From the NCBI GenBank assembly GCA_964016885.1, contig OZ024740.1, forward strand, positions 85,436,001 to 85,500,000: 64,000 nt of DNA, in the 5' to 3' direction. Each line of letters opens with the position of its first letter. The first letter of the stretch is position 1. The position numbers were made by a program, and so were the translations under genes. The notes beneath the pieces were generated by a model. That model was given only the letters and a program-made list of their open reading frames with translations. It made no database searches and was not told where the DNA came from. Positions 5,734 through 60,939 of this stretch are shown here, in pieces. Origin of the DNA: Eledone cirrhosa (taxonomy: Eukaryota).

Positions 5734-12385
<6,652 letters not shown>

Positions 12386-18248: not shown

Positions 18249-18296
18249 AAAATGACCGGTTTCGATGGGTCGGCAAAAGCCATCTTTTCAAATGTT
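18249..18296 (-). ncRNA. Type I hammerhead ribozyme, U3:A8 variant
   Basis: aacat TTGAAAA gatgg-loop-ccatc GAAA ccgg TC atttt. Palindromic stem III ACCGGT; weak stem I. Confidence 0.65.
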
Positions 18297-18747: not shown

Positions 18748-18800
<53 letters not shown>

Positions 18801-18835
18801 TATATATATATACATACACATACATCCAGATACAC

Positions 18836-18878
<43 letters not shown>

Positions 18879-18881
18879 CAC

Positions 18882-18919
<38 letters not shown>

Positions 18920-19760
18920 CCACACATACATACACACACACACATATATATACATACACACATACAAACATACACACACACACACATATATATACACATA
19001 CACACACATATATATACACACACACACACACGCATATATATATATATATACACATACAGACACATATATTTTTTCCATAATATAAGAAGTTGGGACAGTG
19101 AAATTAAAATACAAGTCATTCTGATCACATTGAGTTCTTGATGTAGATTGGGCCCCGCAACCGACAGTGGTGAATTCTGTGTGCGCATATATATATAGAT
19201 ATATGTGTGTGCACGTGCAGGGTTTAACATGGATGTGTTGGTCACACAAAGGCATGGTCTGTCAACGAATAAACCTGATTCTACAGAATTGGTCTCTGGT
19301 CTTTAATAGTAGTGATTCCGTGCGTATGTGTGTTTATATTTTATGACAATTCTATTGGGGTGATAACCCGTTTAGTTTTGGTTTAAATTTGTTAAGGAAT
19401 AGATTTTCTTTGTTTATTCTTTGTTGCTGTGTGAACGAATCTGAGCACTTGTAGAAGGGGAAGATTTTAAAGTTGGGTAGTGTCATTCCTGCGCAGTTCG
19501 CAATATGGCTGCTCAAGGGGATTTTTCTTGTCCCGGATTTGTTGGCGGTGGATGGTCATTCTTTTGCGTAAATCTGACCTTTATAAAATAACCCACACCC
19601 CAAATAACTTCTCATTCACTACCAGAAAGGGACACAGCAGTCAACCTGTTGTTGCTACCTAGATGAAAACTGCTATGAAATCCCACAATGAATTTTATAC
19701 TTGAATTTTCAAATCTCAAATTTTAACTCTTCGTATTATTAATTTTTCTTAATATTAATC

Positions 19761-19808
19761 AACATTTGAAAAGATGGCTTTTGCAGACCCATCGAAACCG
19801 GTCATTTT
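19761..19808 (+). ncRNA. Type I hammerhead ribozyme, U3:A8 variant (inverted-arm copy)
   Basis: aacat TTGAAAA gatggcttttgcagacccatc GAAA ccgg TC atttt. Confidence 0.65.
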
Positions 19809-19944
19809 TTATACCCTTTATTATTTCCTTACCTTATAAAATTATGTTTTTTCACAAAAAAGTATTCTGTCTCTTATATATTCCATGTGCTCTATATTCA
19901 ATTTTCTCTATAACCTTCGTTTTGTGTAGAAAATTACACTTTTC

Positions 19945-25683: not shown

Positions 25684-25990
25684 ACGGCGATGAATTAGTT
25701 TTGCGAGGTTTTTTATATGAAATCGTGTGTCGAAACAAATATTGTTATACTTGGGAAGGGTCATATTTGTGTAATATTGCCAGAATTAATAACAGAACAC
25801 ACTCACTGTTTGGTTGGTTTTCGCTTCTGTGTCTTTTATAGCGGTAATCTAATTTATTCGTACCGAATAAATTAGATTACCGCTATAAAAGACACAGAAG
25901 CGAAAAGCGAAAACCAACCAAACAGTGAATGTGTTCTGTTATTAATTCTGGCAATATTACACAAATATGACCCTCCCCAAGTATAACAAT
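25684..25990. mobile_element. PLE-type fold-back insertion (tail + palindrome) in (TA)n
   Basis: Arms 25740-25861 and 25862-25990 with no loop (centre GGTACC) and a ~56-nt one-sided tail; same family as 32251-32521, related to 52678-53193. Confidence 0.75.
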
Positions 25991-29500: not shown

Positions 29501-30600
29501 GTCGTAGCCGTCACAATGTTGTCCAACGTGACCATTTAGGTCGCCTGCAATAATTATATAGTCATTGTCGGTTATTTGGGAGGTAGTGAGCATCAGTGTC
29601 TTATAGAATCTGTCTTTTATAATGCCGGCCAGTCCGGATTGGGGTGCGTACGCAGATATTACTGTCACCGTAGTTCTATTGAGGGCAAGTCGTATTTTAA
29701 TTATTCTGTCGTTCACTCTATTTACGTCTATTATCTTATCTGCCCACTTTTCTGCTACCATGATTCCTACTCCACCCAGCCCATCGTCGTTTCCCACCCA
29801 GAAAAGCTTATAACATCGTTTTTTACCCTCAATGAATCTAGCAGACCCACCCCTCCACCTGGTCTCTTGAATACAACAAACATCGACCTCCTTATGTTCA
29901 AGCATTTCTACAACCTCGTTAGCGCGACCCTTTAGGGTGCCTACATTTATGGTACCAACTCTGAAGTTTTGGATTGCGTTTGGAGGGTGGGGGGAGATGG
30001 GGTTATGTTAGCCGTCCACGGTCGAAACAAAGAGGAGTGCTCGCATTCTCGTCCACGAGGTGAATTTGTCTTTATCTTTGGCATTGTCGCTGAGCGTCCA
30101 GATTTTTCTCTCTCTTCCACTCTCCAGGATTCCGTAGTCCATCCATCCATCCATCATATATCGAAAGGCAACCGGGCAAGCGATAGTATAGGCCTCTGGC
30201 TTATGATTGGTCCGCGTAATAATAATGGTGATGCGTGGGGGTTCTGGCTTATGATTGGTCCACGTAATAACAATGGTGGTGCGTGGGGGCGGGAGGAAGG
30301 GGTGTTGGGAAGGTTGGTTAGAAGGTTAGGATTGTATGAGATCCTCGTGTTAACAAGCGGTTAGCAAAAAAAAACAAAAATACAAGATTTGTTCTGTTCA
30401 ATACAAAAACTCCCGTATTTAACATAAATAACAAAAAATACAGATTTGTTTTAGGAAAACGTTCGCTACATTTAGGATTTTGCAAGATTGGATGTTTGGA
30501 CTAGAATACGAAATGGAAGTGTTGGAGATGATAGAAAAATGTGTACATTACGATTACATGATGTACCATGGAAGGAAACAGCGATGAATTGGCAAAAGTA
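26532..30600 (-). mobile_element. Near full-length RTE-clade LINE (APE endonuclease + RT + PHD-like finger), disabled
   Basis: APE motifs (CIQETRW, SAYAPQ, GDLNGH, VDYIL, SQHRLL) in 28580-29905; RT motifs ([14 protein letters not shown]) in 26931-28549; stop at 28580; frameshift near 28160; (GAT)n 3' tail at 26532-26556. The 5' boundary is approximate. Confidence 0.92.
26931..29945 (-). pseudogene. RTE ORF (EN-RT) broken by one stop and one frameshift
   Basis: ORFs 28580-29905, 28091-28549 and 26931-28151 are collinear parts of one polyprotein; the copy at 38547-40198 reads through both lesions. Confidence 0.9.
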
Positions 30601-30617: not shown

Positions 30618-30668
<51 letters not shown>

Positions 30669-30672
<4 letters not shown>

Positions 30673-30810
30673 GGAAACTAAATTTATAAAACCATATTTA
30701 TTCTATGATATATATTTCAAGGGTACCAAAATTTGGTACGCTCTCATCAGATAAAATACAAAGTTTGTTTTATAAATATTGACATATATTAAATATCCCT
30801 TTTGCTTATA
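30669..30810 (-). mobile_element. Short PLE pLTR stub, sister family of the 43063-49006 element
   Basis: AAATGGAAACTA..TTTATAAAACCATATTTATT matches 43167-43207; flanked by (TA)n. Confidence 0.75.
30699..30758 (-). ncRNA. Type I hammerhead ribozyme
   Basis: tattttat CTGATGA gagcgtaccaaattttggtaccctt GAAA tatata TC atagaata. 8-bp stem I; palindromic stem III. Confidence 0.85.
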
Positions 30811-30822: not shown

Positions 30823-31014
<192 letters not shown>

Positions 31015-31038
31015 ATATACATATATGCATATATACAT

Positions 31039-31595
31039 AGGGTGTTAAAGTTTGCTTGAAGCATTGTGAAATGTGTAAAAATACGTATTTAAGAAAGCCA
31101 CAACAATGCAAAGGGGAATCTCGAGGTAGGAAGTGAAATATAGATAGGAAAAACAGGTGAAAGTGAAAGTTGAGAGAGACAAAGATGAAAACAAAACAAA
31201 GGTAGAAGGGTTACCGTAGTAGAGATTTTAATCCCAATATTTCGGGCTCACGCCCATCAACGGGGGAAAAGTTCCAAAAGGGGGGAAAACAGGCCAAGCG
31301 GAGAAAGTGGTGATGTCGTTAAGACAGGAATGCCGTTGCATTCCTGTCTTAACGACATCACCACTTTCTCCGCTTGGCCTGTTTTCCCCCCTTTTGGAAC
31401 TTTTCCCCCGTTGATGGGCGTGAGCCCGAAATATTGGGATTAAAATCTCTACTACGGTAACCCTTCTACCTTTGTTTTGTTTTCATCTTTGTCTCTCTCA
31501 ACTTTCACTTTCACCTGTTTTTCCTATCTATATTTCACTTCCTACCTCGAGATTTCCCTTTGCATTGTTGTGGCTTTCTTAAATACGTATTTTTG
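31039..31595. mobile_element. PLE-type fold-back palindrome (arms ~257 bp, 4-nt loop, ~36-nt tail) in (TA)n
   Basis: 31076-31333 is the reverse complement of 31338-31595; each arm has the degenerate hammerhead-like motif tccc CCGTTGA t gggc gtga gccc GAAA ta TT ggga. Confidence 0.75.
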
Positions 31596-31722
31596 CATAT
31601 ATACATATATATATACATATGTATATATACATATATATATACATATGTATATATACATATATATATACATATGTATATATACATATATATATACATATGT
31701 ATATATACATATATATATATAC

Positions 31723-31753
<31 letters not shown>

Positions 31754-31764
31754 CATATATATAC

Positions 31765-31795
<31 letters not shown>

Positions 31796-31858
31796 CATAT
31801 ATACATATACATATATATATATATATACATATATACATATACATATATACATATATAC

Positions 31859-31923
<65 letters not shown>

Positions 31924-31972
31924 CATATATATATCTACACATATATACATATATACATATATATATATACAC

Positions 31973-32003
<31 letters not shown>

Positions 32004-32044
32004 CATATATATATACATATACATATATATACATATATATATAC

Positions 32045-32200
<156 letters not shown>

Positions 32201-32250
32201 ATATACATATATGCATATATACATATATATATACATATGTATATATACAT

Positions 32251-32521
32251 AGCGGCGATGAATTAGTTTTGCGAGGTTTTTTATATGAAATCGTGTGTCG
32301 AAACAGATATTGTTATATTTGGGGAGGGTCATATTTGCGTAATATTGCCAGAATTAATAACAGAACACACAGTCAATGGCAACATTGAGGACCGAGTAAG
32401 TTAGATCGCAGATATATATATATAAAAGACAGCGAGAAGCGAAAACCAACCAAACAGTGAGTGTGTTCTGTTATTAATTCTGGCAATATTACGCAAATAT
32501 GACCCTCCCCAAATATAACAA
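32251..32521. mobile_element. PLE-type fold-back insertion, same family as 25684-25990
   Basis: Same GGCGATGAATTAGTTTTGCGAGG tail; the inverted arm ends at the same ...TAACAATA position. Confidence 0.75.
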
Positions 32522-32608
32522 TATATATACATATATATATACATATGTATATATACATATATATATACATATGTATATATACATATATATATACATATGT
32601 ATATATAC

Positions 32609-32655
<47 letters not shown>

Positions 32656-32666
32656 CATATATATAC

Positions 32667-32697
<31 letters not shown>

Positions 32698-32748
32698 CAT
32701 ATATACATATACATATATATATATATATACATATATACATATACATAT

Positions 32749-32827
<79 letters not shown>

Positions 32828-32876
32828 CATATATATATCTACACATATATACATATATACATATATATATATACAC

Positions 32877-32907
<31 letters not shown>

Positions 32908-33118
32908 CATATATATATACATATACATATATATATATACATATATATATACATATATACATATACATATATACATATATATATACATATACATATATAC
33001 ATATATATATACATATATATATATACATATATATATACATATACATATACATATATATATACATATATATATACATATATATATATACATATACATATAT
33101 ATATACATATATATATAC

Positions 33119-33149: not shown

Positions 33150-33325
33150 CATATATATATACATATACATATATATATACATATATATACATATATATAT
33201 ACATATATATATATACATATACATATATATATACATATATATATACATATACATATATATATATACATACATATACATATATATATACATATATATATAT
33301 ATACATATATATATATACATACATA

Positions 33326-33705
33326 TAATATGTTGAGAAGGTAACACACCAGAGAGAGATATATAGTGCGTTATCAATAATACAGGGAAAAAACCATTTC
33401 TTTCAACAAATTTTCTGGTGAAACATATCTTTGGATTTGTACGTGTGTTATATAGTTATAGAGGTATTTATTTATGCTTTAATTTATATTTTTAATTATC
33501 GTGTCTATAGTCTGCCTTTCATAGGTTATATATTCCATACACTGGTGGTTTTTTCCCTGTATTATTGATAACGCACTATATATCTCTCTCTGGTGTGTTA
33601 CCTTCTCAACATATTATATTTTAAAGGGCTCAGGATCTCTTCCCCTTTGAGCACATTATTTACAGGGAATAACGACGGCCTATGCCTCCGTTAATTTATC
33701 GTGAT
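33326..33705. mobile_element. Fold-back insertion in (TA)n (arms 33326-33396 / 33546-33616, ~88-nt tail)
   Basis: 71-bp inverted arms; no hammerhead recognised. Confidence 0.65.
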
Positions 33706-35124: not shown

Positions 35125-35178
35125 CATATATATATACATAATATATAAGAACAAAAGATGGTTAAAAGAGTTCCATGT

Positions 35179-35247
35179 ATTTTATTATGCGCATTTCAAA
35201 AACAAATATCATCATGCAATAATATTTGTGTTTTCATCAGATAAAAC
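35179..35247 (-). ncRNA. Type I hammerhead ribozyme (inverted-arm copy)
   Basis: Reverse complement of 37159-37227. Confidence 0.85.
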
Positions 35248-37158
35248 AGGAAGACATGATATGAAGGTTAAAAAACACTTGTGGATAGTGCAGTTTTAAA
35301 TCAACATATGAGAAGTAGTTTTAGATTGATGTGTGATATTGGGAAACATATTTTATTTTGAGGGGTGGGGGTGGAAAGGATGAAAAAGAGGAGGAGATGA
35401 GAGTAAAAAGTGGAGAGGGAGGAGTATAATGAGGAAGGATGAGATAGGAGGAGAGATGGGTGATAGAGAGAGAGAGATAGCTTTTATAACTGAGAAAGAT
35501 ATATTGTTTTACATAGAGAAGTTGAAAACCGTTGGAAGATAATGTATAAATTAAAAGAATAGAAAAATAATGTAAAGTTAAGGTTTGTATATTGAGGGGT
35601 TTAATAATATGTGCGATGAAAAGAAAATGTTAATATGTATTAAGAATAATATTTAAGGGTTTAATAACATGTGCGATGGAAAGAAAAATTTAATATGTAT
35701 TAAGAATGATATTTAAGGGTTTAATAATATGTGCGATGGAAAGAAAATGTTGATATGTATTATTAAAAAGAACAACAGGTAATTTAAGTAAGGATATATT
35801 GTGAGATGAGCATGAATGAGTTAGATGAAAGGGAGAAAAGAATAATGAATTGAGGATGAATAATCTAACGTCAAAAAAATGTTTGTTTACGAAGGATTTT
35901 TACAAGGTGATATAGAGTAAGAATGTATTGTATTATGTAATAATTGATTCTATGTTAGGCAACAGTGAGAAAAGGTACAGATTAGGGGTTAGACATTAAA
36001 AGAAAAAGAGAAGAAAGATATTAAATATAGCATCTTTTGGAAGAAGGTTTCTTCTGCGTCCTTATACTTGAACAGTTCTCTATCCAAAATTTGCAATCTC
36101 TGTCTAAATGAAAAATTTACCATTATATCTAATTTAGATTCTATAATAAATAGACGCACTGACTTGTTTTCTATCTGCTTGCATAAATTCCACAAAACAT
36201 TCCACAAAGTATACAGCTAATATCCAAATCTTTATCAATTTAGAATTTTTTTCTCAAAGGCACATATATATATATATACTTCTTTAAAAATATACCCATC
36301 TTTCTACCTTATTTCAAAGGTTATTATACATTCTATAATACTTGTTACTCATTCTATATCGCTCCTATTTATCACTTCCCTTTCTTCTCTTTTTATTTTA
36401 ATGTCTAACCCCTAATCTGTACCTTCTCTTACTGTTGCCTAACATAGAATCAATTATTACATAATACAATACATTCTTACTCTATATCACCTTGTAAAAA
36501 TCCTTCGTAAACATAAACATTTTTTTGACGTTAGATTATTCATCCTCAATTCAGTATTCTTTTCTCCCTTTCATCTAACTCATTCATGCTCATCTCACAA
36601 TATATCCTTACTTAAATTACCTGTTGTTCTTTTTAATAATACATATCAAGATTTTCTTTCCATCGCACATATTATTAAACCCTTAAATATCATTCTTAAT
36701 ACATATTAAATTTTTCTTTCCATCGCACATGTTATTAAACCCTGAAATATTATTCTTAATACATATTAACATTTTCTTTTCATCGCACATATTATTAAAC
36801 CCCTCAATATACAAACCTTAACTTTACATTATTTTTCTATTCGTTAATTTTCAAATTCTTTTAATTTATACATTATCTTCCAACGGTTTTCAACCTCTCT
36901 ATGTAAAACAATATATCTTTCTCAGTTATAAAAGCTATCTCTCTCTCTCTATCACCCATCTCTCCTCCTATCTCATCCTTCCTCATTATACTCCTCCCTC
37001 TCCACTTTTTACTCTCATCTCCTCCTCTTTTTCATCCCCCCCCCTCAAAATAAAATATTTTTCCCAATATCACACATCAATCTAAAACTACTTCTCATAT
37101 GTTGATTTAAAACTGCCCTATCCACAAGTGTTTTTTAACCTTCATATCATGTCTTCCT

Positions 37159-37227
37159 GTTTTATCTGATGAAAACACAAATATTATTGCATGATGATAT
37201 TTGTTTTTGAAATGCGCATAATAAAAT
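37159..37227 (+). ncRNA. Type I hammerhead ribozyme
   Basis: gttttat CTGATGA aaacacaaatatta..tgatatttgttttt GAAA tgcgca TA ataaaat. Palindromic stem III ATGCGCAT. Confidence 0.88.
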
Positions 37228-37366
37228 ACATGGAACTCTTTTAACCATCTTTTGTTCTTATATATTATGTATACTCCAATCCTACAAACTGTACAGTGCT
37301 TCTTATCCGATATCTGCATTGCTTTATTGTACTACAATAAAACTCACCTCCTACATATATATATAC

Positions 37367-37563: not shown

Positions 37564-40198
37564 ACGTTTAACGTCCGTGTTCCACGCTTGCATGGGTTTG
37601 GACGAGGGTTTTCCCACTTGAGGCAAGACTGATTGTCTTGCTCGCATAGGACTGTCTGGCGGGTTTTCTACAGCTGGATGCCCTTCCTAACACCAACCAC
37701 ATTTACAGTGTGGGGCTGGGAGTTTTTACCGTGTTGCCTACACGGCCACATTACAGCGTGGACTGTGTGTTTTTTTGTCGTGACACCTACACGATCTCAT
37801 TTGTTTCGGCCTGGATGTTCTGGCACCAACATAACTTTACATTGAAGGGGCGGTGTGGATGGGGTGGGGGTGGTGGGACGGGGGTGTATTTCGTTAGAGA
37901 TGCCTACTGGCTGTAGTAGGTTTTACTTTGTATTTAGGTAAGGCGGATCTTCTCTATTACTGAGTACCGCCAAAGGTCTCGGTCCAGTGACATTGTCTTG
38001 GAGAGGTGTAAGTGTGTGAGGTCAGAATTTATCAGCTCGTCCCAAGTTTTTCTGGGTCTGCCTACTCCGTAGCTACCGTCTATCTTTATTGCCCTGCACT
38101 TTGTTATACAGCTGTCGTCTTTCATGCGCATCACGTGACCATACCAACGTAGCCTTCGCTCGAGTAAACAACATCTGATCCCTCTTATTTCTAATTTTTT
38201 CCTTAGTTCGCATATGCTTTGCCGTTCACGTATGTTACTATTACACATCCAGCGGAGCATGCAAGCTTCGTTCCTCTCTAGTCTGCGTATATCCTCTGCA
38301 CACAATGCCCAGGTCTCACTGCCATGCAACATTGCTGTTCGTATGCAGGCATCATACAACCTGCCTTTCATTCTTAGGGAGAACCCTTTAGCGGCTAATA
38401 GTGGTATAAGCTCTCTGAACTTTTTCCAAACAGTTCTGACTCTAGCTACTGTACTTTCACAGCACCCTCCCCCACTGCTGATTTTGTCGTCCAGGTAACG
38501 GAAGCTGTCCACTATTTCTATAGAACCCTCTGCGCAATTGAAACAGCTAGTATTTAGTGGGTGGGCACTTGCTGCTACTTATTGCACCAGAGCACCGGCC
38601 ACATGTAAAATCTATGTTCTTAGTTAGCTTACCTGTGATCCCACTACATCTTTTATGCACCCATACTTTGCATTTGGGACATAAAATAGAGTTTCTACCT
38701 ACGCCTTTCCTACACACTGAGCATGGCCATTTCCCGGAAGGGACCGGCGCCTTATTTTCTTTCCTACAAACTAGAACTTTAGTCTTAGCCAGGTTAATTT
38801 TAAGGCCTTTTGATTCTAGGCCGTGCTTCCATGTTTGGAATTTCTTCTCTAGCTCGGCTATTGATTCAGCTATGAGCGTTAGATCATCTGCGTATAGGAG
38901 TTCCCATGGGCAGCCGGTCTTGAACTCCTCTTTTATAGCCTTAAGGGCAATAATAAATAGTAGGGGGCTAAGAACAGAGCCCTGATGGACACCAACTTTT
39001 ACGCTAAACTCTTCACTATATTCGTTGTTAATTCTAACCTTGCTGACTGTTTCTTTATACATGGCTTGTATAGCTCTCACAAGCCATTCATCAACACCTA
39101 GTTTTCTAAGAGCCCACCAGATAATGGAACGGGGTACTCTGTCGCAGACTTTCTCCAAGTCAACAAAAGCTAAGTATAGGGGTTTACCTTTAGCTAGGTA
39201 CTTCTCCTGTAGTTGTCGTACAATGAAAAGAGCGTCTGTGGTACTTTTGCCTGACACAAACCCGAACTGCATTTCATCTAGATCAATTCTCTCTCTGATT
39301 AGTTTCGCTATTACTTTTTCCGTGACCTTCATGACCTGGTCGATTAATTTAATGCCTCTATAGTTACACCTATCTAGGGCATCTCCTTTACCCTTGTAAC
39401 AGTTAATGATGATGCTGCTACGCCAGTACTTCGGAACAACCCCATTCTGTATGACTTGGTTTACTATCCGGGAGACCATGGTGTGTCCCACCGTTCCAGA
39501 GGCTTTCAGCATCTCAGCAACTATTTCCGAAGGCCCAGCCGCCTTACCCGCCTTCATATATTTGATTGCTTTACTTATTATACTACCTTCGACTAACACT
39601 GCTGGTCCCTCTATTGGGTCGATGTGGGGGAGACTGTCTTTCTCCCATTTATTCTCCTCATTTAGAAGCCTTTCGTAGTGACTCTTCCAAGCTACCTTCT
39701 TATCAGCATCAGTGATGGCAAGTACGCATTCATCATTAAGTACACACTTCTCCCCGACAATATCACGGTTTTCCTTGACACATTGCCTAGCAATCCTGTA
39801 CACCTCACGTTTTTGGTCCTCGCGTTGTAGAACATGCTTGAACTTTCTTTCCTCTGCTTCCCTTCTTGCGAAGTACACTTGTCTCCTAGCTTCCCTCCTG
39901 GCCACTTGATAGTCTTCTCTACTTCCCCCATCCCGCCATACTTTCCAAGCCTGCTTTTTGGCCTTAATTGACTCCTCCACCTTACTGTTCCACCACCATG
40001 TTATTCTCCTCCTACCTACAGGCCTGCTCCAGCCACAGACTTCGTCTGATTGCTCTTCCTTACTGTCGAAAGCATCAAGTAATATGCTTTGAAATTTATT
40101 TCTGGCTGTGGGGTCCTTTAGCTTCCATATTTTTCTCCTGAGGATAGTCCTCTTCTGCTGTCTAGTACGTCTCGTCCTGACTATGAGGTCGCTAATTA
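37534..40198 (-). mobile_element. 5'-truncated RTE LINE (copy 2 of the main family)
   Basis: RT ORF in 38547-40198 plus 37934-38512, nearly identical to 26931-29250; (GAT)n tail; internal deletion near 40050. Confidence 0.92.
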
Positions 40199-40457
40199 CA
40201 TATATACATATATATATATATACATATATATACATATATATATATATACATATATATATACATATATATATATACATATATATATATACATATATATATA
40301 CATATATATATATATACATATATACATATACATATATACATATATATATATACATATATATATATATACATATATATATATACATATATATATATATACA
40401 TATATATATATACATATATATATATACATATATATATATACATATACATATATATGC

Positions 40458-42238
40458 ACATGCAAATAACGAAGCCAGAGGAGTTCTTTGATGCCACAAC
40501 ACTACATCAAGAAATGGCAACCATCAACCACATAGACATAACGGAGGAGGATGTGGTGTACGCCATTGATGAAATTAGAACAGACTCGGCTGCTGGACCT
40601 GATGGATTCCCAGCAGTTCTCTTAAAAATATGTAAGCGGGCCTTAGCAACTCCACTGAAGATGCTCTTCAGAAGCTCCTTGGCTAGCGGTGTACTACCCA
40701 GGGAGCTGAAAGAAGGCACAATATGCCCTATCCATAAAGGAGGTAGCAGAGCGGAGGCCAAAAACTATAGGCCAGTCTCCCTGACGTCGCATATCAGTAA
40801 GGTCATGGAGCGAGTCATCAGAAAGAAACTGATCACTTTCCTCGAGGAAAATGACCGCCTGACTAGCACGCAACATGGCTTCCGCCCAGGAAGAAGCTGC
40901 CTTACACAGCTGCTACATCACTACGACTGGGTATTGAGACAACTACTAGACAGCTCACACGTGGACGTGATATATCTTGACTTTGCGAAGGCCTTTGACA
41001 AGGTCGACCACGGAATGATATGTCACAAACTACACGGACTCGGCATAACTGGAAAATAGGTGAGTGGTTGCATGGCTTCCTAAGGGACAGAAGCCAGGCA
41101 GTCGCAGCAAATGGGGCCCTCTCAAAGGAAACACCAATAACAAGTGGGGTGCCCCAGGGGACAGTCCTGGGACCACTACTGGTTTTGGTGGCTCTCTCAG
41201 ACATGCCCTCTGTAGTACATACAACAACATCCCTCACTAGCTATGCTGATGACACTAAGGTAGCACAAGCAATCAAAAACCTGGCTGACGCTGCCCTTTT
41301 ACAGCAGGATCTGGATGCCATATACAAATGGGAGGAAGAAAACAATATGCAGTTTAATGCTGGCAAATTCCAAGCCCTACAATACAAACCTCCAAACAAA
41401 CCTGCAAACACAAATATAGTGGAACACAACTACACAGGACCAGGAGGGACTGATATCCCCGTGTCAAAATCGATACGAGACCTGGGCATAGACATGAGCG
41501 ATGATGCATCTTTTTCTTCACACATCATGAAAGTGGCGACAATGTGCAGACGACTCGCTGGCTGGATCTTGAGGACTTTCCGGACAAGAGATCGAGACTC
41601 CATGTTGAAACTATGGAGGACATTTGTCCTAAGCCGCCTGGACTACTGCTCCCAGTTGTGGTCACCCCATAGTGTCAAACTAACCACGGAGCTTGAGGCA
41701 ATCCAGCGAAGATACACCAAGAGGATTGCCAAGATGAGGGAGACAAGCTACTGGGAGAGGCTAAAGGAACTGAACCTCTACTCCTTGGAGCGAAGACGGG
41801 AGAGATACGCAGTGATCTACATGTGGAAAATCCTGGAGGGACTAGCACCAAACTTTGGCATTGGGAGCTGGACCAACCGTTGAACAGGACGTCACTGTGT
41901 GGTGCCAAAGGTCCCGTCTTCCACATCTAGAATAAGGAGCAGGTATTGCAATAGCCTGGGATTCAAGGGCCCTCAACTCTTCAACAGGCTGCCGAGGGAT
42001 CTGAGAGACTTGCATGACGTGGAGGTGGATGTCTTCAAGAAACATCTCGACACCTTGTTATCCAGGATCCCGGATGAGCCCACAGCAAGACACGAGGGAA
42101 ACCTAAGGGCAGCAGCAACAAACTCCCTCTTACACTAGTGGCCAACCTATACAGGCTGGAGATAAAATGTGTAGTAACAAGGGCGGTGCCCCAGCATGGC
42201 CTCAGCCGGATGGCTGAAACAGGTAAAAGGATAAGAGT
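40458..42238 (+). mobile_element. 5'-truncated CR1-group LINE (RT + 3' UTR)
   Basis: [73 protein letters not shown]; frameshift near 41055. Confidence 0.9.
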
Positions 42239-42520: not shown

Positions 42521-42864
42521 AATGTATTTTGAAATACACTTTATGCTTAATTAAAAGCATTTTGAAGACCGTAAGCTATAGTTTTAAAGTAGTGACAAAT
42601 TCACTCACTTTGATCTCAGCAAACAGGGGAGATAAGCCGACAAGACTTGTTTCGCTTTGGTTGAAGCTTATCAAGGCCAACTACCCCACCTGTTTGCTGA
42701 GATCATTGATGTTATATTCTTATAGAAATCTAGTAAATAATCAGGAGCTGATTTCAGAGCTCCAATTCTAATTTTTAATTTCTGCCTGACCAACAACCGC
42801 TCTGCATAATCAGCTCCTGATTATTTACTAGATTTCTATAAGAATATAACATCAATGATCTCAA
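42521..42864 (-). mobile_element. PLE-type fold-back insertion with hammerhead in (TA)n
   Basis: Arms 42698-42753 / 42808-42863; hammerhead at 42635-42678. Confidence 0.7.
42635..42678 (-). ncRNA. Type I hammerhead ribozyme, U3:A8 variant with extended stem I
   Basis: ggcc TTGATAA gctt caacca aagc GAAA caagtcttg TC ggct, enclosed by the pairing TGATCTCAGCAAACAGG (42611-42627) / CCTGTTTGCTGAGATCA (42689-42705). Confidence 0.8.
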
Positions 42865-43202
42865 TGTATATATATATATGTATATATATATGTATATATA
42901 TATATGTATATATATATATGTATATATGCATATATGTATATATGCATATATGTATATATATATGTATATATGCATATATGTATATATATATATGTATATA
43001 TATATGTATATATATATATATGTATATATGCATATATGTATATATATATATATATATGTATATATGCAAAAGTTTTATTTAAGATTGTTGGGTTACAACG
43101 AGTAAATATTTTATAACTGATATAAAAGCACTCAACAGTTTCTGGAGTAGGTTTACGATATTAAACAAATGGAAACTATATTTATATTTATAAAACCATA
43201 TT

Positions 43203-43268
43203 TATTTCGTTATATATATTTCTGGGATATCATATTAAAAATATGTTATGCCTTCCTCAGACAAAATA
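43203..43268 (-). ncRNA. Type I hammerhead ribozyme (inverted pLTR)
   Basis: Reverse complement of 48801-48866. Confidence 0.75.
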
Positions 43269-45060
43269 CAATACATAAGCTGTTTTATAAATAATTAGTG
43301 ACATACCTTGTGATAATGCAACTTCCTTTTAAAAAGTTGATTTGGTAGTGAAACTGTTATGATAGTTATATAGAAAGAAAACGAAGATGAGAAGAAGAAG
43401 ATGAAGAGATGTATGCAAATAAAAAAGAAGAAGATGAAGAGATGTATGCAAAGAAAAACAACGGAGCGAGATAGAGAGACAAGGAGAGAGAGAAATACAT
43501 TGATGGTGAAAAAAAAAAACCTAGTAGGCTGCTTTTTGACAGATGATCATCGTATATGTGAGAGGTTAAGGGAAGGGATACAGTTAAATTAGTGTATAGG
43601 AGAAAAAGAAAGAAAGATGATATATTTAAAATATATTAAAAATATGTTATGTCTCATCCATTTGAATTATCAATTTTTATGAATTAGGTATTATAATGTA
43701 AATATCAGTATTCATGAATGAGACACATATCCATAATGTGTGAAAAAAATGACCACATGCTCAGTTAAAAATTCTTAGGTCTATAAGCAAAATCAGAGAT
43801 AAAACTTCAAACATAAGTATATATGCATTCTCGTGAAAAAAGAGAAAAGAGAAGGTTATCTCGAATTCAAATTGATAAATATAGACGCACATGTGAACCT
43901 ACGTGATACGCTGCACTGATTCTTATATTTCATGAAAAACTTCAATGCGTTAGAAAAGATTCCCCCCTAAAAACTTCAATGCGTTAGAAAAGATTCCACC
44001 CTACATACATTTACATACATATATACATATATATAGACACAAAACATATAAGATATACATTAACATCTAAAATAACATACCAGCCCTACTTGCATAATCA
44101 TCGATCAAGCATAGAGTAGACAAACAGATATCAATATTAAAATTAAAAACGCCAAGAATATCTTCGTCACTCCACAGAGTATCTAGGGACGCAAGAGAAC
44201 ATAGTATGCCACGCATATCGGTCATCGAATCAGAGTCAAAAGCAAACAAAACCAAAATTGTTCATCAAGCCTTATTTAGCAGAAATCATTCAAAACTTAT
44301 TCTACAAATGCTCTTATATTTATTATAGAAGTTTATCCAGCTTAGAAATTTATTCAAAAGATTGGGGACAACGCCAATTATAGGGTAGTTTATTTAATCT
44401 CTAATATAATTTATAATAGTTTATTTAATCTTTAATATAAGAATCAGTGCAGCGTATCACGTAGGTTCACATGTGCGTCTATATTTATCAACTAGAATTC
44501 GAGATAACCTTCTCTTTTCTCTTTTTTCACGAGAATGCATATATACTTATGTTTGAAGTTTTATCTCTGCTTTTGCTTATAGACCTAAGAATTTTTAACT
44601 GAGCATGTGGTCATTTTTTTCACACATTATGGATATGTGTCTCATTCATGAATACTGATATTTACATTATAATACCTAATTCATAAAAATTGATAATTCA
44701 AATGGATGAGACATAACATATTTTTAATATATTTTAAATATATCATCTTTCTTTCTTTTTCTCCTATACACTAATTTAACTGTATCCCTTCCCTTAACCT
44801 CTCACATATACGATGATCATCTGTCAAAAAGCAGCCTACTATGTTTTTTTTTTCACCATCAATGTATTTCTCTCTCTCCTTGTCTCTCTATCTCGCTCCG
44901 TTGTTTTTCTTTGCATACATCTCTTCATCTTCTTCTTCTCATCTTCGTTTTCTTTCTATATAACTATCATAACAGTTTCACTATCAAATCAACTTTTTAA
45001 AAGGAAGTTGCATTATCACAAGGTATGTCACTAATTATTTATAAAACAGCTTATGTATTG

Positions 45061-45126
45061 TATTTTGTCTGAGGAAGGCATAACATATTTTTAATATGAT
45101 ATCCCAGAAATTTATATAACGAAATA
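45061..45126 (+). ncRNA. Type I hammerhead ribozyme (5' direct pLTR)
   Basis: tattttgt CTGAGGA aggcataacatatt ttt aatatgatatccca GAAA tttata TA acgaaata. Confidence 0.72.
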
Positions 45127-45312
45127 AATATGGTTTTATAAATATAAATATAGTTTCCATTTGTTTAATATCGTAAACCTACTCCAGAAACTGTTGAGTG
45201 CTTTTATATCAGTTATAAAATATTTACTCGTTGTAACCCAACAATCTTAAATAAAACTTTTGCATATATTTTGCTCCAATACCGTTGAGCGCTTTATATT
45301 ATAACTGAAAAA

Positions 45313-47539
45313 ATGGAATTCTTTAAGATCTCTTCTTCTCTAAAAGACATACCTCTACCTAGAAACAAGGACTTTATTAAACAACTAATAGATAAATCAG
45401 ACTCCTTTATAAGGAGAATCAGGTGGCGTGCATTCCACTTTGATAAATCTAAATCTAACGTAAACGAAAATGCCTCAGACCTAGACAGAGTCTTCAAATC
45501 TAAAATAAATCCACCCCCCAACAAACTTTTGAATGATTTTGAAAACGATATAATTTCTATCATACAAGGAGTCAGATTCAAGAGAAACTTCAATGGCCAG
45601 GAATATCTGAAAAGCATTAAGGATAATATTGCGAGCTTAGAGAGAACAGAGAAGATCTTGGTGAAATCGGACAAAACCAACAACCTCTATGGAGTGGAAA
45701 AAGACATGTATAATGGCCTCATACTGAAAGAACTAAGGAAAAAGTACAAGGTAGCAGATAAGGCTGAACTTGAGAAAATGAATGTTGAGGCATCATATAT
45801 AATGCATGAGTTGGAAATTGAGAACAAAACACAACTTTTCGTGCCTAGGAAACCCAAGATCAATATGAAAGATCACAAGAGAAATTTTGAAAATGACTTG
45901 CCAGTCAGGTTGATTGCACCATCAAAATCTGACCTGGGTAAACTTAGCAAGAACATTCTAGACAGAGTGATACAGCAAATTAAGGACTTGAATTGTTTAC
46001 CTGGCTTGACCTTGTGGAAGGGAACTGGGGAGGTCATTGAGTGGTTTAATGAAATTAAATATAACAATAATAATAAATTTATTCAACTAGATATTGCTAA
46101 CTACTATTCATCCATTACCCCTAATCTACTTAATAAGGCACTAAATTACGCATTCAAGCATACAGACCTAACTAGCAATGAAATACACATTATATTATCG
46201 GCAAGGAAAACTTTGATAGAATTTAATAACCAACTATGGACTAGGGCAGATAGAGATAATAATTTTGACATTACTATGGGATCATCAGACTCAGCTCAGG
46301 TAACGGACCTTGTGGGCCTATTTATAATTAATTCGCTGCATAGGAAAATACCCGGTGTTACCGGAGGTTTATATAGAGACGACATGCTTTTACTTATTGA
46401 AAATAATAACTCTGAACTAAATAAGAAAAGAAAACAAATTATACAATTTTTTAATTACCTTAATCTAAAAATAGAAATTGAGAATAACCATAGAATAGTC
46501 AATTTCCTAGACGTAACATTTAATCTCAACACATGTCTTCACTATCCATTTCACAAGTTAAATGAAAACTTGAATTATGTCAATTTTAGCTCCAATCACC
46601 CCAGATCTGTCAAAAATACTATAGTGAACTCTGTTCAAAAACGTATCTCTAGAATCTCTTCCAATAAAAGTATTTTTGACGAAAAAGCCCAGTATTATAA
46701 CGAGGCTTTAGCTAGAGCAGGATATAGTGATAAAATTATGTACATCGATAATAGACAAACTAACCAAAATAACAACAATTTTAATTACAGTAACAACTTT
46801 AACAACTATAATAGAAAGCACTACAATAATTTCAAAAACCAGAAAAGAAATAGAACTAGAAATATAATATGGTTTGCCCCCCCTTTCTCACTAAACATTA
46901 AAACCCACATCGCTAAACTATTTTTTAATGCTCTTGACAAACGCTTCCCTAGAACACATAAGTATCACTCAATTTTTAATAGACATACTATAAAATTAAC
47001 ATACTCGTCCACCAAAAATTTAGCACAAAATATTAATAGAATAAATAATAGGAATCTAAAACCTAGCCAAAAATACCGAAAATAGCCTAAACAATATTCA
47101 ACTAAAAAACTGTAACTGTAGAGATAGATCTAAATGTCCGCTAAATAACAATTGCTTAGTTAAAAATATTATATACAACTGTAATGTTAGAACTGATTTA
47201 AATTCTTTTAATTATGTTGGTTCCACCTCGACAGAATTTAAACTTCGCTATAATAATCACAAAAATTCTTTCACGGATCCAAATAAAAAATCCTCAACAT
47301 CGCTGTCAGGGTTACTCTGGCAACTTAAGCATGATAAAGTTGGATATTCGATGGTTTGGAATATAGTCTCAAAAGGGATTCCTTTTAATTCCTCTTCTGA
47401 GACTAGTGACCTCTGCGCGGAGGAGATATTCTTTATATTAAAATCTAAAAATTCCCTTAATTTACGAACCAATTTATTCAGCTGTTGCAGACATAGATTG
47501 AACTCAACATTTAAATATAAATATAAATTTAAAATGTAA
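45313..47539 (+). CDS. PLE reverse transcriptase + C-terminal GIY-YIG endonuclease (one frameshift near 47058-47061)
   Basis: 590-aa ORF with SLKDIPLP, KSDKT, VRLIAP, LDIANYYSSI, ITMGS, GLYRDD, NFLDV and SNHP. The shifted frame continues KNCNCRDRSKCPLNNNCLVKNIIY..NYVGST..FKLRYNNH..DLCAEEIFFI..LFSCCRH..* to 47539. Confidence 0.88.
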
Positions 47540-48800
47540 TATAAAATATAGTATATTTACTTAAGGTATTTAACTATTTGTGCTACTTGGTGATAAATCT
47601 TTCGATTCCTTGAATTTTTTTTTTTTTTTTTTTTTTTAAAACCTTTCTGCATGAATATATAATTAATGAGATTAAATAAACTACCCTATAATTGGCGTTG
47701 TCCCCAATCTTTTGAATAAATTTCTAAGCTGGATAAACTTCTATAATAAATATAAGAGCATTTGTAGAATAAGTTTTGAATGATTTCTGCTAAATAAGGC
47801 TTGATGAACAATTTTGGTTTTGTTTGCTTTTGACTCTGATTCGATGACCGATATGCGTGGCATACTATGTTCTCTTGCGTCCCTAGATACTCTGTGGAGT
47901 GACGAAGATATTCTTGGCGTTTTTAATTTTAATATTGATATCTGTTTGTCTACTCTATGCTTGATCGATGATTATGCAAGTAGGGCTGGTATGTTATTTT
48001 AGATGTTAATGTATATCTTATATGTTTTGTGTCTATATATATGTATATATGTATGTAAATGTATGTAGGGTGGAATCTTTTCTAACGCATTGAAGTTTTT
48101 AGGGGGGAATCTTTTCTAACGCATTGAAGTTTTTCATGAAATATAAGAATCAGTGCAGCGTATCACGTAGGTTCACATGTGCGTCTATATTTATCAATTT
48201 GAATTCGAGATAACCTTCTCTTTTCTCTTTTTTCACGAGAATGCATATATACTTATGTTTGAAGTTTTATCTCTGCTTTTGCTTATAGACCTAAGAATTT
48301 TTAACTGAGCATGTGGTCATTTTTTTCACACATTATGGATATGTGTCTCATTCATGAATACTGATATTTACATTATAATACCTAATTCATAAAAATTGAT
48401 AATTCAAATGGATGAGACATAACATATTTTTAATATATTTTAAATATATCATCTTTCTTTCTTTTTCTCCTATACACTAATTTAACTGTATCCCTTCCCT
48501 TAACCTCTCACATATACGATGATCATCTGTCAAAAAGCAGCCTACTAGGTTTTTTTTTTTCACCATCAATGTATTTCTCTCTCTCCTTGTCTCTCTATCT
48601 CGCTCCGTTGTTTTTCTTTGCATACATCTCTTCATCTTCTTCTTTTTTATTTGCATACATCTCTTCATCTTCTTCTTCTCATCTTCGTTTTCTTTCTATA
48701 TAACTATCATAACAGTTTCACTACCAAATCAACTTTTTAAAAGGAAGTTGCATTATCACAAGGTATGTCACTAATTATTTATAAAACAGCTTATGTATTG

Positions 48801-48866
48801 TATTTTGTCTGAGGAAGGCATAACATATTTTTAATATGATATCCCAGAAATATATATAACGAAATA
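48801..48866 (+). ncRNA. Type I hammerhead ribozyme (3' pLTR)
   Basis: tattttgt CTGAGGA ..stem II.. GAAA tatata TA acgaaata. 8-bp stem I with one G-U pair. Confidence 0.78.
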
Positions 48867-49257
48867 AATATGGTTTTATAAATATAAATATAGTTTCCAT
48901 TTGTTTAATATCGTAAACCTACTCCAGAAACTGTTGAGTGCTTTTATATCAGTTATAAAATATTTACTCGTTGTAACCCAACAATCTTAAATAAAACTTT
49001 TGCATATATACATATATATATATATATATACATATATGCATATATACATATATATATATATACATATATATATACATATATATATATACATATATGCATA
49101 TATACATATATATATACATATATGCATATATACATATATGCATATATACATATATATATATACATATATATATATACATATATATATACATATATATATA
49201 TACATATATATATATACATATATATATATACATATATATATACATATATATATATAC

Positions 49258-49288
<31 letters not shown>

Positions 49289-49387
49289 CATATATGCACA
49301 TATATATATATATATACATATATGCATAAATACATATATATACATATATATCTATATATATGCATATATACATATATATATATACAT

Positions 49388-51005
49388 GTACCTAGCTAAA
49401 AGTAAACCCCTATACTTAGCTTTTGTCGACCTGGAGAAAGCCTTCGACAGAGTACCCCGTTCCATTATCTGGTGGGCTCTTAGAAAACTAGGTGTTGACG
49501 AATGGCTTGTGAGAACAAGCCATGTATAAAGAAACAGTCAGCAAGGTTAGAATTAACAACGAATATAGCGAAGAGTTTAGCGTAAAAGGTAGTGTCCATC
49601 AGGGCTCTGTTCTTAGCCCCCTACTATTTATTATTGCCCTTCAGGCTATAACAGAGGTGTTCAAGACCGGCTGCCCATGGGAACTCCTATACGCAGATGA
49701 TCTAACGCTCATAGCTGAATCAATGGCCGAGCTAGAGAAGAAATTCCAAACATGGAAGCACGGCCTAGAATCAAAAGGCCTTAAAATTAACCTGGCTAAG
49801 ACTAAAGTTCTAGTTTGTAGGAAAGAAAATAAGGCGCCGGTCCCTTCTGGGAAATGGTCATGCTCAGTGTGTAGGAAAGGCGTAGGTAGAAACTCTATTT
49901 TATGTCCCAAATGCAAAGTATGGGTGCATAAAAGATGTAGTGGGATCACAGGTAAGTTAACTAAGAACATAGATTTTACATGTGGCCGGTGCTCTGGTGC
50001 AATAAGTAGCAGCAAGTGCCCACCCACTAAATACTAGCTGTTTCAATTGCGCAGAGGGTTCTATAGAAATAGTGGACAGCTTCCGTTACTTGGACGACAA
50101 AATCAGCAGTGGGGGAGGGTGCTCTGAAAGTACAGTAGCTAGAGTCAGAACTGGTTGGAAAAAGTTCAGAGAGCTTATACCACTATTAGCCGCTAAAGGG
50201 TTCTCCCTAAGAATGAAAGGCAGGTTGTATGATGCCTGCATACGAACAACAATGTTGCATGGCAGTGAGACCTGGGCATTGTGTGCAGAGGATATACGCA
50301 GACTAGAGAGGAACGAAGCTTGCATGCCCCGCTGGATGTGTAATAGTAACATACGTGAACGGCAAAGCATATGCGAACTAAGGAAAAAATTAGAAATAAG
50401 AGGGATCAGATGTTGTTTACTCGAGAGAAGGCTACGTTGGTATGGTCACGTGATGCGCATGAAAGACGGCAGCTGTATAACAAAGTGCAGGGCAATAAAG
50501 ATAGACGAGCTGATAAATTCCGACCTCACACACTTACACCTCTCCAAGACAATGTCACTGGACCGAGACCTTTGGCGGTAGTCAGTAATAGAGTAGACCC
50601 GCCTTACCTAAATACAAAGTAAAACCTACTACAGTCAGTAGGCATCTCTAACAAAATACACCCCCGTCTCACGACCCCCACCCCATCCACACCGCCCCTT
50701 CAATGTAAAGTTATGTTGGTGCCACAACATCCAGGGCGAAACAAATGAAATCGTGTAGGTGTCACGACAAAAAAAACACACAGTCCACGCTGTAATGTGG
50801 CCGTGTAGGCAACACGGTAAAAACCTCCCAGCCCCACACTGTAAATGTGGTTGGTGTTAGGAAGGGCATCCAGCTGTAGAAAACCCGCCAGACAGTCCTA
50901 TGCGAGCAATGACAACCACTCTTGCCTCAAGTGGGAAAACTCACGTCCAAACCCATGCAAGCGTGGAACATGGACGTTAAACGATGATAATGATGATGAT
51001 GATGA
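49388..51005 (+). mobile_element. 5'-truncated RTE LINE (copy 3 of the main family)
   Basis: [23 protein letters not shown], ORFs 49522-50037 and 50072-50581; (GAT)n tail at 50984-51005. Confidence 0.92.
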
Positions 51006-52677: not shown

Positions 52678-53185
52678 TCGTTTCTGAATTCGTTTAGCAA
52701 GATTCTTTATCTGAAATCGTGTGTTGAAACCGATATTGTTATACTTTGGGAGGGTCATGTTGCCAATAAGAAACACACGCACCAGTTGCTTTCACTTCAA
52801 TTCAATTTATTAAATATTTATAAATTTACAAATTTATAAATTTCTGGTTGGTTGGTTGGTTCCACAACCAGATAGTTGTTTATATATATATAGTCATAGT
52901 TCTTTCGTCACACACTCTGTGACCTCTTCAGTGACTGGGGATTTCTTTCTTCGTTTCTGTGCCTTTCCTTTCTTCTATCCTACGCCAAAAATGAAGAGGT
53001 CACAGAGTGTGTGACGAAAGAACTATGACTATATATATATAAACAACTATCTGGTTGTGGAACCAACCAACCAACCAACCAGAAATTTATAAATTTGTAA
53101 ATTTATAAATATTTAATAAATTGAATTGAAGTGAAAGCAACTGGTGCGTGTGTTCCTTATTGGCAACATGACCCTCCCAAAGTAT

Positions 53186-57500: not shown

Positions 57501-59169
57501 ACCAAAGGTTTTAAAGTTTGTTATCGCCCTTTCTCGCTTCCTTTTTTATTTAACTTTTTTCTTATTTCATGTTTATTATCTATTTTCTTGAGGGTGGGGG
57601 ATTGGCAGTATCCGCAGAGTGTCGGACAATATGCTTTGCGGCATATAGTTACAAACCATTACGTTCTGTGTTCAAATAATAAACGCAAGGAACAGTTAAA
57701 AGTTTGAAATAACAGTGTTTCGCTAGCCAACATGTTGCTAACATGTAGTGTTCATAGATAAGAAGTATGTTGGAATATGTAGGAATTTATGAGTGAATGT
57801 GTGAATATGGAGATGTGGCTTAAGAAAAGATATCGCATTGATGATTGACAGGTTTACTAACATGGATACTATGTCATGACTTGGCTGTGACAGCACCGAC
57901 TACCTTGGTGACTGCCACAACCGAAGTCTCTTGTCCGGTGTCTGAGCTATGTCCGTCTGCATTTCATATCCACAGATAATTTCGCTACAGATTCATACTA
58001 ATATATCGATTATACAATTGAAGTATATTTACAATGTCACTAATTTTCGTAATACTGCATAACGTTTTTAAAATGTCAAAATATTTTGCACACAGAAAAG
58101 AAAAAAGAGGTTTTTATTTAGATATAGCGACTATTTCCCAAATTAAGTCTCTACCAGAACAATTGGCAACGTGAACATCTCATTTAAGAATAAAATACAT
58201 TTAACACGTGTATGTGTTCGGTTTATTTATTTAATTCATTTGAAATTTTCTACAGATGTCATTATCACTTTATATCTTAACATGATAACGTCCTTGTCAT
58301 TGCTAGCTTTTGTGTGTTGCTGTTGGCGTAGTTGATATCTATATTAGTATTATTGTTTTGAGGATGGCTTGTTGTTGTTATTATGTAATGCTTTTGTTCT
58401 TAAACATCATCAACACAAAGTACATCCTTCCGGGCTTCCTGTTTTGTCGTTCTCTATTTCTCATTGATTCTGGTACCTTAATGAAGCAATCTTGTCTATT
58501 GACAGGAAGACCTACTCAAATTATTTCAATCACGTGTCCTTTTTGTTTAGTTTCAAACAACAACCAACTGTTCTTTGCTTGAGAAGCAGTTTATAGTTTC
58601 TTCATCAACTATTGAATTGCTTTCTAATGGTTTCTCGTAGAAGCCATTCATATAGTATTTTGACAATATCTTCAAAGAAAAGTGTCTTTCATTACAATCT
58701 ATCTGTTGTTACAATAGACAGTTTTCTTCCTTATCAATTGTTGGTGCTAAATTACATCTCCCTTTACCCCAACCAAGCAAAACAATTTTATTTCAGATAT
58801 ATACCCCCTCATCTACACACACACACATATAGTAATAATAAATGTGAAGACTAAGATTCCGTAAAAGGGTGAAAGCCGCGATTCTTTGCTTAAACTTTAA
58901 TCTGTACATATGATATATATCATTTTACGTCTGCTTTTCCTGTGTATATATATATGTATATATATACATACATATGTATGAAATAAACGTTAAGACAGAA
59001 GTTACATAATCATATTTATTATTATACGTATTTCTGTGACACTGGCATGGAGCTGTTGTGCAACTGTTGCAACAGTGACCTGTACCAGTGTGACATCATC
59101 AGATGTTAACACAATTATGTGGATGGGTTGATATATTGTTTTCTAATTAACCTGTTATCGAAGTAATAT

Positions 59170-60510: not shown

Positions 60511-60939
60511 TATGTATCAATTGCTAAGTAATAATCAAGTAATTATGTACATGTGTGTGTGAGTGTGTAGGGACACACACACACACATATATATATGTAT
60601 GTGTGTGTGTGTATCCCTACACACACATACGTACATAATTACTTGATTATCACACACACACACACATATATATAATATATATAGGAGTGTGTGTAGTAAG
60701 TTTTTCAACAAGAATAAAAGTGCTAATTTATTATGATACATAAATAGGATTCATGGTCTGACTATATTACATGTCTCTATCTGTAAAAGTAACATAGGCA
60801 AAAAGTTTCCTAGAATAAATAGATAGAAAATCACCTCCACCACCCAGTCATTCATATGGCTCTTCAATGAAATTCTCAGCAAAAATCTTGTTAAGTCCAC
60901 AATATCTGAAGCCTGCTAATGGTCCTAATATCATCAGAA

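Follow-up and report, generated by a model that had tools for sequence, protein, structure and literature searches.

A young Hydra-type Penelope-like retrotransposon of Eledone cirrhosa, with two lesions at its endonuclease, is probably a decaying copy and not an enzyme source

Can a retrotransposon copy that looks almost whole still supply the enzyme of its family, or is it itself moved by the enzyme of another copy? The question is raised by a Penelope-like element (PLE) in a 64,000-nt stretch of Eledone cirrhosa DNA (positions 85,436,001 to 85,500,000 of contig OZ024740.1; the whole stretch is called the window, and all positions below are its own), which is AT-rich, repeat-dense eukaryotic DNA. 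A first-pass annotation had described the element as young, nearly intact, one nucleotide from a full open reading frame (ORF) and a candidate source of trans-acting enzyme. Its sequence supports a Hydra-type PLE with a 3.74-kb unit and with direct and inverted terminal copies; anatomy, motifs (including that of a hammerhead ribozyme) and lesions are directly visible in the locus, and the protein folds in predicted models. We consider it likely that this is a young but decaying copy with Hydra motifs, its endonuclease (EN) damaged twice, and that it is probably not an enzyme source.

The reverse transcriptase (RT) frame runs from stop to stop at 45289-47085 (+) and encodes 589 amino acids (not the 590 first counted) from an ATG at 45316, which follows a short unique 5′ leader of 46 nt (45270-45315). 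It contains RWR at 45421-45429 (residues 36-38), DKT at 45670-45678 (within SDKT, residues 118-121), YRDD at 46372-46383, and a thumb. A homology search with the RT found 363 proteins among 7998 candidates, and motif and fusion counts were made on the best 120. These have RW[KR] in 111 cases, DK[TS] in 117, YRDD in all 120, Y[VAI]DD in none, and CxCx5C in 100; at the N-terminal motif the same 120 split into 81 with RWK and 34 with RWR. Pfam gave no family at E 0.1 for the RT or the EN piece, and the identity of both rests on homologs and folds. The predicted RT model (pLDDT 91.2) has telomerase reverse transcriptase (TERT) as its top PDB match (E 7.8e-10), TERT being the expected sister of PLE RTs. 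An Asn-rich insert, predicted to be disordered (46750-46860, residues ~488-508), lies between the RT core and the thumb, and recalls the N-rich inserts described for Adineta Penelopes (PMC3846280).

The EN is encoded in a +1-shifted frame at 47060-47539 (+) that overlaps the RT frame and has its stop at 47537-47539. The linker CNCRDRSKC (47111-47137; cysteines C599, C601 and C607, forming CxCx5C), the motifs IIY (47168-47176) and YVG (47213-47221), and the domain end at 47539 were all located where first noted. The domain retains the catalytic Y, R, H, E and N, and CxH is kept as C724-x-H726; there is no CCHH in the core, which has a single Cys between IIY and YVG and no CxxC there. Its predicted model (pLDDT 87.8) fits the GIY-YIG nuclease I-TevI with Z 9.7 (root-mean-square deviation 2.1, 88 residues aligned), T4 EndoII with 7.8 and UvrC with 6.6; Foldseek with this model gave no match at E 0.001, though GIY-YIG enzymes took ranks 1-6.

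The first-pass annotation had proposed that removal of one A from the run of four at 47058-47061 fuses RT to EN. Loss of a base there does open a frame of ~740 aa, but the site is not unique: any single-base loss within 47057-47085 restores the frame (29 equivalent positions, 16 distinct outcomes, with A-runs of 4, 5 and 4). The RT-EN fusion itself is not due to chance, judging from the relatives, because 106 of the best 120 align through to the end of the EN.

A second EN lesion had been missed. Residue 697 (codon 47405-47407), the first Cys of a CxxC before the catalytic Glu, is Ser here, whereas all but one of 107 aligned relatives have Cys; the odd one out is a truncated and misaligned protein. 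Cys is also found at this position in a sibling EN remnant of the same window and in the six published Hydra rows compared (PMC8557442). By its sequence, then, this EN has lost a near-invariant Cys, which may be a zinc ligand needed for activity. "Nearly intact" therefore overstates the state of this copy. As it stands, it could make RT only, with no linked intact EN. The two EN defects make it probably a decaying passenger, and an encodable RT without a linked intact EN makes the locus more likely a client of enzyme than a donor; the proposal that it supplies enzyme in trans is thus left without support. The two lesions most likely arose by neutral decay, whether here or in a donor that the enzyme of another copy had moved.

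We next consider the clade. As defined in PMC8557442, Hydra PLEs have a C-terminal EN, RWK, DKT, a divergent RT4(B), a CxCX5C linker and no CCHH; CxxC and CxH may accompany the conserved E and N, and the clade shows canonical hammerheads and insertion into (TA)n. Here RT is followed by a C-terminal EN, with the frame break between, and there is no N-terminal EN; RWR, DKT, CxCx5C and CxH are present, CCHH is absent, and CxxC is replaced by SxxC. The RT4(B) segment FDITMG..D.A...LVG and GLYRDD agree by eye with the Hydra rows of Fig. S7 of PMC8557442 and not with its MGSP or Y[VI]DD rows. A type I hammerhead lies near the 3′ end, and imperfect (TA)n tracts lie at both outer ends. A single uninterrupted RT-EN ORF is not found, given the +1 break in 47057-47085. 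The Hydra-type assignment of the first pass thus stands, on motifs, the pLTR hammerhead and (TA)n flanks (pLTR, pseudo-long terminal repeat), together with 35-46% identity to a Hydra-2_Amil-like locus.

That locus came from a scan of GTDB genomes, which found 13 loci (L001-L013) encoding Hydra-type PLEs. They are contigs of bacterial bins, many of them with hammerheads, (TA)n tracts and inversions, and are probably animal host DNA contaminating the bins of symbiont metagenome-assembled genomes. The hammerhead of L012 is identical to the published Hydra-2_aMil row and its EN is by eye nearly the same letter for letter (PMC8557442); our element matches L012 at 35% over 116 aa in the EN and 46% over 70 aa in the thumb. 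With Hydra-2_Amil and Penelope-13_HM, as these are presented in PMC8557442, it shares an RT with C-terminal GIY-YIG, RW[KR], DKT, divergent RT4(B), YRDD and CxCx5C; further likenesses to the clade are the lack of CCHH, the CxH, the (TA)n flanks and a 3′-proximal type I hammerhead with a 4-bp palindromic stem III. It differs from the published Hydra elements in its frame break, its SxxC, its ~35-46% identity and a mirrored 199-nt flank.

Among named relatives, the nearest to the protein in our searches belong to Argonauta hians, Octopus bimaculoides and O. sinensis, which makes an octopod host likely. A quick tree with 51 rows (Hydra-type proteins alone, midpoint root, no outgroup) places it in an 11-row group (SH-aLRT 100) together with three Argonauta proteins. 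The closest named relatives are the A. hians proteins P0003, P0011 and P0012 and the Octopus fragments P0268 and P0272, at 35-49% identity; they are annotated merely as hypothetical or low-complexity, and none belongs to the same family as our element. Best identities were 42% for a full-length match in the near-length RT search, 52% in a search of 50% representatives and 51% in one of shorter proteins; the near-length EN search found none among 22 candidates. Short tags of six published Hydra families had no exact match in 262 proteins; two matched with 2 mismatches, in different families. Hydra-1_Obim of Octopus bimaculoides, probably from the same host group, belongs to the same clade and by eye has SDKTNNLY, DSA in RT4(B) and WFAP in the thumb in common with our element. 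It differs in its N-terminus and hammerhead sequence, has 2507 bp, keeps CxxC, and is described without pLTRs in PMC8557442; its 10-residue N-terminal tag was not in the 262 proteins examined. Because no relative above 52% identity was found, and because it is distinct from Hydra-1_Obim, the element is by sequence a new family within a published clade, with a published layout.

The other clades were rejected. Penelope/Poseidon elements (D. virilis Penelope, anole PAc) resemble ours in their direct and inverted pLTRs, hammerhead and AT-rich targets, as described in PMC11167929 and PMC3846280. In these descriptions they have DKG, a YVDD-type motif C and an MGSP-type RT4(B); their EN carries CCHH, they lack a CxCx5C linker, and their tail of 30-40 nt is one-sided, unlike the mirrored flank here; our element has no DKG, Y[VI]DD or CCHH, and does have the cysteine linker. 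Neptune and Nematis would need a CX2-5CxxC linker and CCHH, neither of which is found in our element, and Naiad and Chlamys an N-terminal EN and no canonical hammerhead, where ours has a C-terminal EN and a hammerhead.

The hammerhead was sought with a descriptor modelled on the published table (File S2 of PMC8557442). It matches five times in the window and never in 30 shuffles: at 48801-48866 (+) in the 3′ pLTR, with predicted cleavage after 48858, at its identical mirror in the inverted arm (43268-43203, −), and in siblings at 30758-30699, 37158-37228 and 35248-35178. Against the siblings at 30699-30758 and 37158-37228, stems I and III covary, with a G-C to A-T exchange in stem I and two double changes in stem III, and stem II varies in sequence with its hairpin kept; the layout agrees with File S2. 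The sequence at 48801-48866 is thus a putative canonical type I hammerhead. The hammerhead of the 5′ pLTR (45061-45126, +) carries a substitution at 45112 which disrupts its palindromic stem III, and it fails the descriptor which the other two terminal copies pass; palindromic stem III has been linked to dimeric activity (PMC4209133). The minimum-energy fold of the region scores no better than those of shuffled sequences (z −0.36). A search of Rfam at E 5 found no hammerhead within the element and, on the tracts, just low-complexity, miRNA-like matches. A looser descriptor finds hammerheads in 10 of the 13 GTDB loci. A model (R1) built from the window hammerheads, including that of the 5′ pLTR, matches the latter; in the window it finds nothing beyond its sources and their mirrors, except weakly at 58983-59117 (E 0.18), and in the 13 GTDB loci it gives weak matches alone.

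The pLTR copies had been called almost identical, which they are, but there are three. A long 3′ untranslated region (UTR; 47540-49008, 1.47 kb), which contains a poly-T tract and tandem duplications of 34 and 33 nt and has AATAAA just before the 3′ end of the element, includes the 3′ pLTR (48140-49008). The 5′ direct pLTR (44434-45269, +) is a partial tandem copy of the latter, from which it differs by 5 substitutions, one 1-nt indel and one 33-nt indel in ~835 nt. Upstream lies an inverted, 5′-truncated copy of the 3′ end (43061-44401, −, the counterpart of 47668-49008). All three ends stop at the same motif (45258, 48998 and 43061). Two direct pLTRs with an upstream inverted copy are the typical PLE layout (Fig. 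2 legend of PMC8557442; PMC3846280), and an inverted 5′-truncated upstream copy is listed for Penelope-13_HM in PMC8557442; among the 13 GTDB loci such a copy is found in L001, L004 and L010, and more complex inversions in L007 and L013.

Flank included, the inverted arm (42864-44401) differs from 47668-49205 by one substitution in 1538 nt (99.94% identity), at 43793 against 48276. At every site where the direct pLTRs differ it carries the state of the 3′ copy, and it spans 472 nt absent from the 5′ pLTR. The allele pattern together with this extension shows that the arm did not arise from the adjacent pLTR, and simple fold-back of the 5′ pLTR was rejected. At the head-to-head junction (44402-44433), ~24 nt are copied again locally (44386-44409 recurs at 44417-44440), which may be a template-jump scar.

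At 0.0036 substitutions/site/Myr (Myr, million years), a rate borrowed from O. bimaculoides as cited in PMC13282606, the arms give an age of 0.09 Myr (0.002-0.5) and the direct pLTRs one of 0.83 Myr (0.27-1.9). Later homogenisation of the arm would leave the older figure alone as the date of insertion, and a 5′ pLTR derived from a template that had diverged beforehand would make the younger figure the date. Under either dating the copy is young, in line with the first impression of youth: all three terminal copies are within 0.6% substitutions.

The arms remain identical beyond the element. Their match runs exactly, for 197-199 nt, into flanking imperfect (TA)n with 21 C/G interruptions, so that 42864-43060 (−) is an exact inverted match of 49009-49205; this mirrored tract lies outside the limits first reported for the element. 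The whole right-hand tract (49009-49387), imperfect (TA)n with C interruptions, may be target, carried tail or both. In 552 comparisons between tracts no match is longer than the mirrored one (the next has 130 nt, the median 27). A mirrored flank is absent from the six other fold-backs examined in the window, five of them showing the one-sided tail of ~35-85 nt (lengths by eye) that is a known PLE signature, and in L004 and L010 nothing but pure TA is mirrored. The literature searched, of partial coverage, yielded no paper that describes microsatellite flanks mirrored in this way. Abutting the mirrored tract is a small element (42522-42863) with a 56-nt perfect inverted repeat, its right arm cut at 42863; it has a decayed minus-strand hammerhead (Rfam HH9 at E 0.011, 42618-42688) in a strong hairpin (z −7.6).

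How did the right-hand flank come to be mirrored on the left? We lean somewhat toward a template switch at the DNA level or a later conversion. The alternative that survives best, though we think it unlikely, is that the perfect left arm and mirrored tract are an artefact of assembly or polishing, the true left arm being shorter or more diverged. Near-perfect identity for 197-199 nt into a low-complexity flank would fit this, as would the missing mirror at the six other fold-backs and at L004 and L010, and the right arm of the small neighbouring element ending exactly where the mirror starts. But the arms are separated by 3.3 kb with a unique ORF between them, which does not resemble a read fold-back, and the 5′ pLTR has escaped homogenisation. 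The arm also has its private substitution (43793 against 48276), and the inner junction bears its re-copy scar. Such an artefact would touch the arm alone, leaving the identity of the element untouched.

It is rather doubtful that the enzyme itself copied the ~200-nt flank to the opposite end, with either read-through RNA or the newly integrated right end as template. In the RNA version, to which we give similarly little credence, read-through RNA of the donor locus brought the microsatellite along and the RT copied it at each end, so that the element would spread its own targets. Both outer ends do read into the same sequence of at least 197 nt, and the anole Poseidon-clade enzyme is reported to prime weakly from the 3′ end of its RNA (PMC11167929). 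In that system, however, the dominant RT start is a fixed internal site (same source); moreover, the three ends here share one stop motif, AATAAA lies just before the 3′ end, and the other fold-backs show a one-sided unique tail instead.

The anole enzyme also supplies the model for how the element may have inserted. According to PMC11167929, it cuts and extends both strands at AT-rich DNA and starts reverse transcription at fixed internal RNA sites, and hammerhead cleavage is not required. By analogy, target-primed reverse transcription probably placed our element in a (TA)n tract. An intact family member's RT-EN protein would nick the tract and prime cDNA at the right end; this first cDNA would copy an RNA in partial tandem (unit plus pLTR). 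A second synthesis, starting at the left, would make the inverted arm and then jump into the 5′ pLTR, leaving the small re-copy scar. The arm would most likely be copied as DNA from the right-hand end, by a template switch during integration or by later conversion, a read-through RNA tail being a somewhat less likely source.

We now weigh the reading of a decaying copy, against which several points can be raised. The clade call rests on motifs and one reference matched by eye, and the unit, at 3.74 kb with a 1.47-kb 3′ UTR, is longer than the "generally <3 kb" given for Hydra elements in PMC8557442. A stop-free RT of 589 aa is compatible with decay but also with a working RT. Over 152 conserved columns the RT departs from consensus in 26 residues and 2 gap columns, where the median relative deviates at 5.5 and the nearest relatives at 25-28; since these nearest relatives deviate to a similar degree, further RT lesions would be indistinguishable from lineage drift. 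Protein searches found no close relative or second copy that would show the state of the family at the break or at residue 697, and Ser697 could be a family trait. With the assembly as the only witness, the frameshift, the Ser codon and the mirrored flank could each be assembly errors.

The last point bears on a further alternative, which we consider improbable: that the copy is truly intact, with a frameshift that is a homopolymer error of the assembly, as the first-pass annotation had suggested, and supplies RT-EN in trans. The three A-runs in the break interval, the stop-free RT frame, the catalytic residues kept in both domains and the 99.94% identity of the arms are all in its favour. Such an error is possible but not needed, the A-run first singled out being one of three in a 29-base interval. 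Of the ORF's homopolymers (61 runs of at least 4 bases, 6 of at least 6), the remaining ones cause no break. Ser697 would persist, set against Cys in 106 of 107 relatives, the window sibling and the published Hydra rows. The decay of the direct pLTRs (5 substitutions, 2 indels), moreover, already leads one to expect lesions like these; the older age would predict several substitutions and one to a few indels in the 2.2-kb ORF, enough for both. Given the second lesion and a break with 29 equivalent positions, ordinary decay explains the break without an assembly error.

AAA-stop frameshifts are known from ciliates, and we give very little weight to the idea of a programmed +1 frameshift here, with the RT ending in Lys-stop (AAA-TAG) and mostly RT but little RT-EN being made: AAA does precede the stop, the EN frame is open across it, and among 37 truncated relatives there are 8 whose alignments stop at 578-593 (three at 581), but 106 of the best 120 relatives are fused, the 37 truncations are scattered over 542-638 with unrelated tails, 578-593 is the conserved end of the thumb, AAA is frequent in this A-rich ORF, and the EN bears its second lesion.

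Other insertions in the window include relatives of the element. A second Hydra-type PLE (35140-37266) is 5′-truncated, with head-to-head arms 96% identical over ~890 nt; it has an EN C-terminal remnant at ~36020-36214 (hidden Markov model E 3.4e-12) with CxxC and CxH kept, a ~1-kb 3′ UTR, hammerheads on both arms, and a one-sided tail of ~80 nt. At 30659-30810 (−) is the solo 3′ end of a related Hydra-type family, 71% similar to the end of our pLTR, with a well-formed hammerhead (30758-30699) and pure (TA)n tracts on either side. Further fold-back insertions lie at 18167-19890, 25750-25981, 31077-31594, 32318-32513, 33323-33619, 52744-53182 and 60528-60653, mostly within (TA)n tracts or close to them; five have a tail on one side only, and one among all has a hammerhead-like core; they are probably non-autonomous PLE ends. 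Those at 25750-25981 and 32318-32513 are one family, to which 52744-53182 seems related by its ends. Imperfect microsatellite tracts at 30826-32990 appear to be direct duplicates of one another (with exact stretches of 130, 91 and 86 nt), each copy having a different fold-back element at about the same point, which could be due to local duplication or to two haplotypes assembled in tandem.

Fragments of long interspersed nuclear elements (LINEs), which we take to be RTE, occur at 26931-30007 (−), 38547-40523 (−), 49388-50581 (+) and 40999-41883 (+). Three have an RVT_1 match followed directly by a PHD-finger match, and one an APE endonuclease. A 6.6-kb, strongly strand-skewed A/C satellite with a unit near ACCAAC occupies 5735-12385, adjoined by a 33-nt tandem array (3991-5510).

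The Hydra clade, its occurrence in octopus and its direct-plus-inverted layout are already published (PMC8557442), and for O. vulgaris recently active Penelope families have been reported, 31 of them with 336 insertions (PMC13282606). This locus contributes a new family, a long 3′ UTR, and two hammerhead siblings usable for covariation. For specialists, its value lies in the distinguishing alleles on three terminal copies, through which the inverted arm can be traced to the distal end and not to the adjacent pLTR. Should the enzyme itself have copied the flank, the distal 3′ end would be the source of inverted pLTRs, in place of self-priming on the adjacent pLTR, and Hydra-type PLEs would duplicate and spread their imperfect (TA)n targets, helping to build the microsatellite-rich genome around them. 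If the mirrored flank holds in reads and recurs in other copies, it would limit the ways in which the second strand could be made during PLE integration and would tie PLEs to microsatellite growth.

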